Of a stretch of 64,000 bases of DNA, positions 59,412-61,792 are shown one piece after another; positions within the stretch are counted from its first letter, which is position 1, and every line of letters starts with the position of its first letter. The notes below the pieces were generated by a model, which saw nothing but the letters and a program-made list of their open reading frames with translations, had not been told where the DNA came from and made no database searches. The DNA comes from Escherichia coli (GTDB taxonomy: Bacteria; Pseudomonadota; Gammaproteobacteria; Enterobacterales; Enterobacteriaceae): assembly GCF_003334255.1 (NCBI RefSeq), contig NZ_QOWU01000005.1; one strand, written 5' to 3'. The position numbers and the translations under genes were made by a program.

Positions 59412-61792
59412 CTGCTTTTCTCACATTTGCAGATTTTAAAAAAGCAAACAAAAACCTCCGTACATGATGTACAGAACAATCTACCAGGTAGTGGCGTCAG
59501 AAAACCTCCGGGCCGCCTGCACTTTCCGGAATGCGCCGGTTATGAAAAACCGGAAATTCAGTCTCTGTTGTAAGATGTACCCTCTGATACTACGTTTTCT
59601 CTGTGTATTTAACTCACTGTATTTATTGTCTTTTTAAGCTTGACTGATATTCTCCGGTCATAGTGTGCCGGATATACATCCCGTAAACTTCTCATTTTTA
59701 TATAAAAATACCTGCACTCTCTTCAGCGCATCTGTCTCCTTTAAGTAAAAAATGTTTTTACGTATTGCTGTAAATTCATTTTAAATCAGTATATTACCTT
59801 GATATTGCTGTCTCCTGGTTTGATGCGTAATCGTTCTGCCTTTCTGGATGATTCTGGTGCTTCCGGGTGCATTCTCCTCTGCACATGCAACAGTTCGTCA
59901 TCGCCACGCTCCCAAAAAGCATATAAAAACGAATCGAATTTGATATTTTTTTCAATCGTTTTTCATAGGAATTTCGTAGGGTATTCTCCGCTATAACCTC
60001 CATATTTGCTGTCTTTTTCTTCATAAATCGTATGCAATGTAGCCTGTCTGTCAAGACCTCTTCTCTGCTGTTGAGGAGACGATCTCATTTTTGGTCTTTT
60101 CCGGGAGAGAGGCTGTCAGATGAGCGAGCCGGATATACTGTCAGAGGTACACCCCGTAGCAGACCTGTGCTCCCATTTCCGCGATCCGGAACCAACAACA
60201 CCCTACGGTTAATACCATTTGAAGCGTCAGGTACTGCAGGAAGTTCCCCCCTGCGCGGACATCGGTTCCTGCCGACATCTCACAATACGGCCAGACTGTC
60301 ATGCAGTAACACCCGCATGCGGTCTGCGGTTTTAAGCGCACTCTCCCGTTTTCAGTGCACCGATAATGCGTCATAGTAAGTCTGGGGGAAGTTACGGAAT
60401 GCCTGTTAAGTGGTGCCGTGGGTGGAGACAGCTTACTTTTCTACAGCAACTGCAGTCATTCAGGATGATCAGGAGATATTCTGTCAATGTCACGATCCTG
60501 CCATTTTCGTACCCGCTAAGATACTTCCGTTACTGATGCTGTCCGCTTTTCACCATTTCATCCTCACTGACAGGCGTTGCGTTTTGGGTCATCACCACAG
60601 CTTTACGTTTCTCTTTTAACCGGTAACGCTCTCCTTTGATATTCAGCGTGGTTGAGTGATGCAGCAGTCAATCCAGGAGCGCTGTTGTCCGGCAACCACC
60701 ATATCAACTTCTTCTCGGGTGTGGCGGAGAGGTGGTATCCTGGCTGAGTTTCGAAGCGAACCGTTCTTTTTGACGGGCGCATTTTACGTCCGGGCTGAAT
60801 GTAGTAACGCGGCATGGAACGTCGGCCCGTATACCATTGCCTTAATCTCCGCAAAGATAACCTCGTCATTCCGGACATTCTCTGCCAGGCATATGTCGAT
60901 GTAATCCATAAACGATTTCAGCTTACCCCTTTTGTGGCCAGTCTTTCTGGCTGGCGGTTCAGGGGATGTTTTCTGGTTATCGTGTACCACAAAGCAGGGA
61001 TATTGCCCCGATAGTCACATTTCAGATTGATCGCGGTCTGAAGATGTGGCACTGAGGTAACGTGCTGGTGTCACTGGTATTGCTGAAGTTATGGTTTTTC
61101 GGGGTCAGGTGAGCCTGTTGTGTGTATGCTTTTTGTTCAGGTCAGAGGGGGACTGTGTGGACAGCGGCTTTTGTCTCCGGGCATTCACGCCTGAACGATG
61201 AATGCGATTTTCAGCAATATTTGTCTTTGTGACACTCTCTGGTTGAGAAGCTAATGCGCGCCCCTGTTTCCACAGAGAATGAGGCTTGCCATCAGCCGAA
61301 ACATCAGTATTCCACGCCATACAGACGGCGCCTGACCATGTGCTGATGCAGGTAAAATGTTTCACTACAACTGTTCGGGTTGCTATGCAACGAAACAGCG
61401 ATTCTCACGATCTTTAACTGCAACGTTTTTCCGCCTGAAAGCTGACTGCCTCCTGCTGAGGTGGGAGGCTATGATTCAGTGCGTTTATAGTCTCCGGGGT
61501 ATGCATGTACCGGAGCATACCATTTCTGGTGGATAACAAGCCGGCACATTCAGACTGCAGTGAAGATGGAGGCACCTGGTTGTGAAGAACGTTTCTGCCC
61601 GTGGCTGCTTCGCATCATCAATGGTATTCATACCCGCTCAGAAATGACCGGGTGCTGAAGCCCTCCGTTATCGCGCAGTATAATGACGTATATGATCTGT
61701 GGACGAGTGAGCGGCGTGCCTGATGTACGCCGCTATTACTGTATTTTACCACAGGGCTGGTTTTCTGCTGCCAGCCCTGTGGTTCTCAGACA

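Follow-up and report, generated by a model that had tools for sequence, protein, structure and literature searches.

The window analysed here is a 64-kb stretch of Escherichia coli DNA. Within it, a gap at 59412-61792 (2381 bases, ~2.4 kb) lies in a genomic island, downstream of alpA and between two ORFs of 387 aa and 205 aa, both hypothetical genes and both located where the preliminary description had placed them. The operon that follows the conserved core of the gap (59520-60150) consists of the 387-aa ORFan, a YeeP-type GTPase, a dynamin-like protein, an RdcB-family protein and a patatin-like lipase. The gap and its neighbours comprise the following features.

58248-59411, minus strand: 387-aa gene, left neighbour of the gap, starting with GTG at 59411, or at 59399 in RefSeq.
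59412-59519, minus strand: stretch immediately upstream of the 387-aa gene, more divergent than any other part of the left segment, with a conserved hairpin and T-run.
59440-59476, minus strand: intrinsic-terminator-like site from the terminator scan, a stem-loop of 9 pairs at 59476-59456 and then GTTTTTGTTTGCTTTTTT.
59520-60150, minus strand: conserved AT-rich non-coding block (the core), putatively the promoter with a long leader, or a regulatory region, for the 387-aa operon.
59703-59741, minus strand: Shine-Dalgarno sequence, mini-ORF, weak hairpin and T-run, from the terminator scan and reading of the sequence.
60027-60054, minus strand: sigma-70 promoter-like site from the promoter scan, TTGACA-16 nt-TACGAT, with 10 of 12 matches.
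60151-60481, no strand assigned: non-coding spacer DNA with normal GC that separates the conserved block from the IS21 end and carries a 43-bp indel.
60482-60967, minus strand: IS21 deletion remnant, identified by blastn, tblastn, NCBIfam, direct comparison of terminal bases and RefSeq pseudogenes.
60968-61700, no strand assigned: decayed orphan sequence, with blocks common to sister islands.
61701-61783, minus strand: two strong hairpins from the inverted-repeat search.
61793-62410, minus strand: 205-aa gene, right neighbour of the gap.

Only short ORFs, on both strands, lie between the 387-aa and 205-aa genes, and the ORF content of the gap is indistinguishable from that of shuffled sequence, which bears out the earlier view that no convincing gene is present; none is intact. 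Its longest stop-to-stop frame measures 135 aa. When the gap's own 2381 bases were dinucleotide-shuffled 500 times, the longest frame reached 128 ± 26 aa and was at least as long as the observed one in 35% of the shuffles; the 15 frames of at least 60 aa compare with 13.1 ± 2.8 in the shuffles. Sampling the 64 kb in 2381-nt windows at 500-nt steps gives a median longest frame of 363 aa, and the only equally ORF-poor places are this gap and 46.5-49.4 kb. The short ORFs had been described as pseudogene debris; this holds for those inside the IS21 remnant, but the rest are what random sequence of such composition yields. The AT-rich segment reported at 59.6-60.0 kb is real, with a GC content of 0.32 at 59600-59799 and 0.375-0.42 up to 60099, compared with 0.48 for the whole window.

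Database searches gave the same picture. RefSeq calls only IS21-type pseudogene fragments in the gap, in all annotated regions examined, and an intact annotated gene, named beforehand as the observation that would count against the preliminary description, is absent from all annotated E. coli regions examined. Searches covered stop-to-stop ORFs of at least 35 aa, of which NCBIfam and PHROGs were given the ten longest, Pfam one and PADLOC ~16; Pfam, NCBIfam and PHROGs matched no gap ORF outside the IS21 remnant. Neither tRNAs nor tandem repeats were found in the gap, only its IS21 piece was matched in collections of 72,556 plasmids and of phages, and a literature search returned nothing specific to the interval. 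A small RNA, suggested earlier, received no support from Rfam 15 covariance models, which matched nothing in 57-64 kb at E ≤ 1; relaxing the cut-off to E ≤ 10 brought only noise from unrelated families, the best scores being 18 and 15 bits where the gathering scores are 42 and 112. Nor does the left half have a conserved fold: the best consensus-fold z of the alignment was -2.5, with no standout in ~80 windows, a comparison of five haplotypes that has little power.

We consider it very improbable that the gap contains a small protein gene. The candidates are frames of 86-96 aa at 59797-60084 (minus strand), 57 aa with a hydrophobic tail at 59464-59637 (plus strand) and 86-99 aa at 61105-61404 (minus strand). 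The second is open in all six variants, with in-frame indels, yet codon positions 1/2/3 received 6/8/5 of the substitutions in 59464-59540 (a hand count from the list of variable columns). The first gave the single weak PADLOC match (18 bits, E = 1.6e-4), which falls in the coiled-coil region of LmuB, but the frame is frameshifted in two variants and differs by 10 amino-acid changes between intact copies. An LmuB identity was rejected because this match, to a K/E-rich translation of AT-rich DNA, is isolated, with no neighbouring frame matching the same model collinearly. Some gene callers derive 55-113-aa 'hypothetical proteins' from 61105-61404, but these have unrelated C-termini, as expected from frameshifts. 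More generally, no synonymous excess was found in any of the six frames of the core, with S:N between 4:19 and 13:20, and the candidate ORFs match nothing in Pfam, NCBIfam or PHROGs. As a positive control, the true frame of the 205-aa gene gave S = 38 and N = 32, against 11-13 and 57-59 in the wrong frames. Every left-part ORF either is disrupted in one or more island variants or lacks synonymous excess, although two of the disruptions used as evidence adjoin or sit in homopolymer runs and may be assembly errors.

The centre of the gap holds an IS21 istB/istA remnant, in line with the inactivated mobile-element gene that had been suspected. Compared with intact IS21, for example that of E. coli plasmid pAGR5151, the remnant matches the right terminus together with the 3' end of istB at 90% nucleotide identity and a segment inside istA at 87%, the two blastn matches having E values of 2e-72 and 2e-97. 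It retains the outer right end (TGTCAA...), with the terminus at 60482, followed by IstB residues 214-265 at 60688-60533 (81% protein identity, tblastn E = 2e-23) and IstA residues 41-134 at 60963-60682 (50%, frameshifted, E = 1e-17); the NCBIfam IstB model also matches (E = 2e-6). This collinear nucleotide and protein similarity establishes descent from IS21. Of the two terminal inverted repeats only the right terminus is present: similarity ends at 60967, 217-246 bp before the IS21 left end, and the left terminus is absent. The remnant measures ~0.49 kb against 2.13 kb for the intact element, having lost ~1.4 kb of interior and the whole left end, and contains neither a complete istA (390 aa) nor a complete istB (265 aa) frame. 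It is unable to transpose or to encode IstA or IstB, and RefSeq already marks both pieces as incomplete pseudogenes. The insertion is old: the truncation at IstA residue ~40 is common to a variant with different internal deletion end-points.

The right part of the gap (60968-61792) is decayed orphan DNA. As the preliminary description had anticipated in speaking of decayed genes, the right third acts like decayed sequence, with indels between island variants that are not multiples of three. Its blocks are 67-84% identical (~70% overall) to islands of the E. coli 042, Z1323HEC0010 and ETEC types and are split by frame-breaking indels of 1, 2 and 98 nt between islands. Among 5.8 billion proteins, the only matches were short 'hypothetical' calls from E. 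coli whose C-termini differ; family searches gave no match, and a conserved 26-mer pattern of the segment was absent both from 100,044 species genomes and from IMG/VR. An origin of the segment from a Gp2/YagK-YfjJ gene received no support from tblastn or tblastx. At its far end, the hairpin pair has an 8-bp stem at 61701-61726 and a perfect 13-bp stem at 61748-61783, begins 9 nt past the 205-aa stop codon and has no T-run after either stem. The 111-nt fold of the pair has z = -6.1, with none of 200 shuffles folding as well, and the pair occurs in window-type variants and is absent from others. It probably marks or stabilises the 3' end of the alpA/205-aa transcript.

Later insertions have struck the gap repeatedly. 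IS100 is present at 60835-60839 in 825 genomes and at ~60931-60935 in 401, compared with 721 genomes in which the gap is uninterrupted as in the window; strain ATCC 11775 likewise has an uninterrupted gap. Other genomes carry IS2 or IS150 within the IS21 remnant, or an IS3-family element just beyond it. The gap tolerates repeated IS insertion and is dispensable DNA.

The left part (59412-60481) evolves unevenly. Identity across 59412-59519 is 74-86% among the most divergent lineages and 93-94% between the window group and lineage L010; across 60151-60481, where every ORF is broken in some variant, it is 80-88% among deep lineages. The core at 59520-60150, in contrast, retains 91-99% identity among five island variants representing four deep lineages, compared with 74-91% among deep lineages in its flanks, and each 30 nt of it contain only 1-8 variable columns, while the left flank has 7-13 and the right flank ~8. 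The neighbouring pseudogene changes several times faster than the core, and so does even the start of the neighbouring gene. Core divergence is 2.5-4 times lower than that of the adjacent IS21 pseudogene, at G/C and at A/T sites (Fisher p = 3e-6, for one pair), and base composition provides no explanation for this conservation. The left segment containing the core is present in ~2,090 of 5,426 complete genomes. Where the core is present, the downstream gene is the 380-391-aa allele or a truncated remnant of such an allele; other alleles occur without the core. An nhmmer profile found no homologue better than E = 0.5 in distant islands or in the rest of the window, and a core 32-mer had no match in IMG/VR.

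Slow divergence need not imply function. Over a few hundred base pairs the islands are visibly mosaic, neighbouring blocks giving conflicting relationships among variants, so the low divergence of the core could stem from repeated gene conversion instead of selection. On such an account the core would have spread recently by homologous recombination, and the whole gap would be neutral junk. Many genomes carry several island copies (a median of 2 places per genome), and variants L008 and L010, for instance, share 97% identity across 60151-60481 and only 83% across 59412-59550. Ordinary mosaic blocks, however, are conserved in one pair only, whereas the core is conserved in every pair of the four deep lineages, and its variable positions fall in the promoter spacer and hairpin loops and not in hexamers and stems. 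We regard a purely recombinational origin as doubtful, if still to be taken seriously.

A cis-acting mobility site, whether a transfer origin acquired from a helper plasmid or an origin of replication, would be an extremely improbable identity for the core. The block is AT-rich, non-coding and conserved, and it lies upstream of antirestriction, DUF932 and RadC genes, which are typical also of plasmid leading regions. Against this analogy, none of 72,556 plasmids is similar to the gap beyond its IS21 piece, no iterons or notable repeats were found, and no relaxase or replication gene is evident nearby.

We propose that the core most likely acts in cis, as the promoter and ~0.6-kb leader of the operon headed by the 387-aa gene. 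A minus-strand transcript initiated near 60020, from the TTGACA/TACGAT promoter, would pass two terminator-like hairpins ahead of the 387-aa start codon. These hairpins may attenuate or insulate transcription. The promoter-like hexamers are invariant in five lineages and 4 of the 16 spacer positions vary, although invariance of the 12 hexamer positions is not significant alone in a block that is ~90% invariant. The promoter and terminator scans report consensus matches only, in numbers no higher than in shuffles; the gap has 2 promoter-like sites against 3.4 ± 2.2 by chance, and the promoter cluster envisaged earlier is thus not borne out. The first hairpin along the putative transcript, at 59730-59713, has 6 pairs with a T-run after it and fits the terminator pattern weakly. 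Its stem arms are invariant across lineages and three loop positions vary. An AAGGAG Shine-Dalgarno sequence precedes a two-codon mini-ORF, ATG-CGC-TGA (59731-59723), which overlaps the 5' arm of this hairpin. The second, at 59476-59456, has the sequence pattern of a rho-independent terminator, a stem-loop followed directly by a T-run, and the GTTTTTGTTTGCTTTTTT run ends ~30-40 nt upstream of the 387-aa start codon. Its stem is kept in all five lineages, where one A-to-G change still pairs as G-U and a 9-nt duplication lies alongside. Invariant hexamers and stems beside a varying spacer and loops, together with the tie between the core and the 380-391-aa allele, argue for a leader; a length of 0.6 kb, however, is unusually long for one.

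The same promoter-like site, with its invariant hexamers, and the two terminator-like hairpins on one strand could instead delimit a free-standing non-coding RNA, transcribed on the minus strand from ~60020 and ending at ~59705 (~0.3 kb) or ~59440 (~0.6 kb), with trans, antisense or decoy action. A block conserved 2.5-4 times better than its flanks without a coding signature would suit such an RNA. The conserved block, however, reaches 130 nt upstream of the putative start and ends ~80 nt before the second terminator, no homologue exists outside these islands, and the core belongs to no Rfam family. Conserved secondary structure is also lacking (best z of -2.5 in the alignment; -0.4 and -1.1 for single sequences), and the predicted leader RNA (z = -0.4) is itself not unusually structured. 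An independent RNA thus appears quite improbable. We also deem it unlikely that 59520-60150 is a functional, unannotated regulatory element of a widespread island, whether as an attenuated leader whose mini-ORF makes read-through into the 387-aa/GTPase/dynamin-like operon depend on ribosome occupancy, or as an independent 0.3-0.6-kb non-coding RNA.

Collectively, we judge it quite probable that the gap is a composite, gene-free spacer of a CP4-type E. coli island with no hidden gene, made up of an IS21 wreck, a decayed right part and a non-coding left part whose core would serve as promoter and leader. The analysis shows the anatomy, the IS21 identity, the absence of any coding or known-RNA signal and the extra conservation of the core, whereas the promoter and leader role of the core and any attenuation or insulation by its hairpins are inferred. 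With a broken IS21, decayed DNA and a conserved AT-rich block but no working gene, the gap is largely ordinary. It is mostly of no consequence, since its sole identifiable content, the IS21 remnant, is already flagged as pseudogenes in public annotation. The analysis serves as a negative result, in that the short ORFs of the gap should stay unannotated as genes. If the core is a leader or promoter, it would control an island operon that is poorly understood and is found in a large share of E. coli genomes.

The island occupies the same chromosomal locus as CP4-44 of K-12, next to yeeX/tmaR, yeeA and sbmC, in keeping with the CP4-type setting first proposed. It shares with the CP4-type islands of K-12 (CP4-44, CP4-57 and CP4-6) the modules alpA, YeeP-type GTPase, DUF932, antirestriction, RadC/YeeS and CbeA/CbtA. 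Relative to what we take to be the K-12 gene order, the region upstream of yeeP in the window carries the 205-aa and 387-aa genes and the gap. The K-12 small RNA gene isrC, presumably between yeeP and flu, differs in position from the gap, where Rfam has no match.

In related islands from Klebsiella, Yersinia, Citrobacter, Cronobacter and some E. coli, alpA and a 258-370-aa gene stand back to back. There, alpA and a 199-aa gene diverge from the 258-370-aa gene, mostly ~0.5-0.6 kb apart (~1.3 kb in Yersinia); a Gp2/YagK-YfjJ gene comes after the 199-aa gene. The window differs in that the alpA/205-aa module is inverted, so that all genes run in one direction with 2.4 kb between. A second IS21 remnant that might have mediated the inversion was looked for on the other side of alpA, and none was found. 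Homology to these islands extends over the flanks (57-66% for the 205-aa protein, 27-32% for the 387-aa protein and ~68-70% DNA identity for the GTPase), but no gap sequence is detectable in them. Most have no gene called between alpA and the 258-370-aa gene, which indicates that no core island gene is missing from the gap. The 387-aa and 205-aa proteins had no match in Pfam, NCBIfam, PADLOC or PDB sequences, and a related-locus search for the 205-aa protein across genome contigs returned nothing.

The closest parallel to the putative leader is one of resemblance only, to the CI RNA immunity of satellite phage P4. In P4, a long untranslated leader containing terminators precedes an operon that is controlled by premature termination through CI RNA. 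The core has no sequence or Rfam similarity to the P4 leader, the repeat search found no repeat pair complementary to a third site, and the terminator-like hairpins of the window are a sequence pattern. What the two would have in common is their arrangement, a leader with terminators placed ahead of an operon.

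The 2.4-kb gap at 59412-61792 is an ordinary feature whose identifiable part is already in public annotation. Its surroundings are as follows.

58248-59411, minus strand: 387-aa hypothetical gene, one border of the gap
61793-62410, minus strand: 205-aa hypothetical gene, the other border of the gap
62489-62695, minus strand: AlpA-type regulator gene, just upstream of the 205-aa gene

A preliminary description saw a gene-poor gap with an AT-rich segment, and our analysis confirms this. The gap holds only short ORFs, on both strands; its longest stop-to-stop frame is 135 aa and it has 15 frames of at least 60 aa, versus 128±26 aa and 13.1±2.8 frames when the same bases are dinucleotide-shuffled. 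The median longest frame in other 2381-nt stretches of the window is 363 aa. GC content falls as low as 0.32 (59600-59799) and does not exceed 0.42 from there to about 60100. The main interpretation offered then, decayed mobile-element DNA in place of a gene, was right, the element being a remnant of IS21.

The window is E. coli chromosome. Several RefSeq genomes match positions 59000-62200 at 100% identity, and the region is present, at some level of similarity, in 4,042 of 5,426 complete genomes. RefSeq annotation of one identical region lists the his operon, yefM-yoeB, yeeZ, yeeY, plaP, sbcB, dacD, sbmC, yeeA, and tmaR (yeeX) as flanking genes and, beyond tmaR, a CP4-44-locus island with yeeW, cbtA, cbeA, yeeT, yeeS, and antirestriction, DUF932, patatin-like, RdcB-family, dynamin-family, and GTPase genes. 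An operon at 52709-57074, downstream of the YeeP-type GTPase gene, encodes a dynamin-family protein of 798 aa, an RdcB-family protein of 301 aa, and a patatin-like phospholipase of 356 aa; the dynamin gene is interrupted by an IS3-family element in the otherwise identical strain OkiPb01711. Only one other part of the window, ~46500-49400, is equally short of long ORFs; it is the island end adjoining yeeX/tmaR and contains small genes with transposase and DUF957 fragments. GC content is very low (0.30-0.37) at ~12000-24000, which adjoins gnd, ugd, wzzB, and the his operon, a position that fits an O-antigen gene cluster.

The centre of the gap is the IS21 remnant. Positions 60499-60687 correspond, at 90% identity, to the right end of intact IS21 with the 3' end of istB, and 60684-60967 to an interior segment of istA (87%); the gap lacks the approximately 1.4 kb lying between these two segments in IS21. 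Direct comparison places the terminal bases of the element (TGTCAA...) at 60482; a small deletion, about 13 nt long, comes next. Minus-strand translation reveals IstB residues 214-265 and IstA residues 41-134, and the NCBIfam model for IstB gives a match with E = 2e-6. RefSeq labels the very same segments incomplete pseudogenes ('AAA family ATPase' and 'IS21 family transposase'). The sister island variant of strain Z1323HEC0010 has the same cut at IstA residue ~40 and a different internal deletion, joining IstA 40-56 to IstB 139-262. Because this truncation is common to both variants while their internal deletions differ, the remnant is old. Other island variants retain the IstB tail only, and the 042-type island has no IS21 remnant.

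Later insertions have struck the same DNA. ABU 83972-like genomes carry IS100 at 60835-60839 with a 5-bp duplication, CATTG, a junction found in 825 complete E. coli genomes, and PI7-like genomes carry a second IS100 at about 60931-60935 (401 complete E. coli genomes). The two insertions are independent, share an orientation, and lie about 96 bp apart inside the IstA remnant; the site is uninterrupted, as in the window, in 721 genomes. IS2 and IS150 insertions occur nearby, and an IS3-family element truncates the island at about 61050. Such repeated hits show that the DNA at the remnant is dispensable.

In the right part of the gap, 60968-61792, sequence blocks align with four further island variants at 67-84% identity, but indels of 1, 2, and 98 nt between the blocks mean that no reading frame is kept. 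Patches of amino-acid similarity between variants in minus-strand translations suggest that it is a long-dead gene. No Pfam-type family matched, and a collection of 5.8 billion proteins returned only short E. coli 'hypothetical proteins' with differing C-termini, as frameshifts would give. A conserved 26-mer of this part was not found in representative genomes of 100,044 species or in IMG/VR, and nothing beyond the IS21 part of the gap matched in plasmid and phage collections. The last 90 nt of the gap contain two strong hairpins (z = -6.1).

61701-61783: hairpin pair directly after the 205-aa stop codon, with an 8-bp stem and a perfect 13-bp stem

Neither hairpin is followed by a T-run. Both are specific to the window-type variant, in which the last ~15 nt of the 205-aa gene also differ, and this combination suggests that the 3' end of that gene contains a recombination breakpoint.

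The left part, 59412-60481, gave no sign of a gene. Forty records sampled from about 2,090 carrier genomes annotate nothing there but the 5' end of the 387-aa gene, and each ORF is either disrupted in one or more of six variants or shows no coding-type substitution pattern. Synonymous to non-synonymous counts in the six frames of its AT-rich core range between 4:19 and 13:20, against 38:32 in the true frame and about 12:58 in wrong frames of the 205-aa gene, used as control. The suggestions that a small RNA or a promoter cluster might lie in the gap found no support: an Rfam search of the left part was empty, consensus folding of five haplotypes showed no conserved structure (best z -2.5), and promoter-like sites numbered 2 versus 3.4 expected.

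The AT-rich block at 59520-60150 is nonetheless much better conserved than all its surroundings. We compared the window, the close B2-type variant L006, and the deep lineages TH9F11, DEF2, and L022 (an island with a 380-aa allele). Any two variants are 91-99% identical within the block (91-97% for the deep lineages). Among the deep lineages, identity is 74-94% over the 140 nt next to the 387-aa gene, mostly 80-88% over the 330 nt flanking the far side of the block, and 82-91% over the IS21 pseudogene; the first 100 nt of the 387-aa coding sequence show 85-88% against L022. Variable sites are fewer in the block at both G/C and A/T positions (6-12% versus 18-23%). No relative of the block was detectable in variants with another allele of the downstream gene or in distant islands. 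The following elements lie in or beside it.

60054-60027, strand of the 387-aa gene: promoter-like site TTGACA-16-TACGAT, hexamers invariant, 4 of 16 spacer positions variable
59730-59703, inside the block: weak hairpin with T-run, its 5' arm overlapped by a Shine-Dalgarno sequence and mini-ORF
59723-59741, overlapping that 5' arm: perfect AAGGAG Shine-Dalgarno sequence and two-codon ORF ATG-CGC-TGA, invariant in five lineages bar one spacer change in strain 605
59476-59440, just outside the block: better hairpin with T-run, preserved better than anything else in the divergent proximal region

The simplest reading of these sequences is that the block is a putative promoter with an approximately 0.6-kb leader ahead of the operon that the 387-aa gene opens; the hairpins would then attenuate transcription or insulate the operon. 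Alternatively, a proximal invariant TAAAAT (59437-59432) could be that gene's own -10 element, the hairpin before it being a terminator for upstream transcripts. The islands are also clearly mosaic, which makes repeated gene conversion a serious alternative to a leader as the source of the block's low divergence. This conserved non-coding block upstream of the 387-aa gene is the sole item that may merit a small experiment.

The 387-aa ORF itself is open in all variants. Its alleles differ without any surplus of synonymous changes, the in-frame counts (S=13, N=39) matching those out of frame. The ORF contains replaced patches, and its middle is low-complexity, proline-rich, and polar. Searches of Pfam, NCBIfam, PADLOC, and PDB returned no match, and its only distant homologues, at about 30% identity, are in Citrobacter and Cronobacter.

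To the right of alpA, 62896-64000 also lacks long ORFs; in other variants an hha-like gene and a hypothetical gene of 263 aa occupy this place, and the stretch may represent another junction, likewise decayed, of the inversion described below. Homologues of the 205-aa (57-66% identity) and 387-aa (27-32%) proteins occur in Klebsiella, Yersinia, Citrobacter, Cronobacter, Salmonella, and others. In islands of the first four genera and of some E. coli, alpA and a 199-aa gene are divergent from a 258-370-aa gene and a GTPase gene, with a spacing of mostly about 0.5-0.6 kb (about 1.3 kb in Yersinia) and, in most, no gene called between. Given this compact junction, the 2.4-kb gap is not the remains of a core island gene. 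The window differs from these islands (comparison set: island loci L012-L017, L020, and L021) in that its alpA/205-aa module (61793-62695) is inverted relative to the GTPase gene. The gap is extra DNA at a rearrangement junction, made up of other sequence and an IS21 insertion that has since decayed. Every variant has AT-rich DNA immediately upstream of its 258-387-aa gene.
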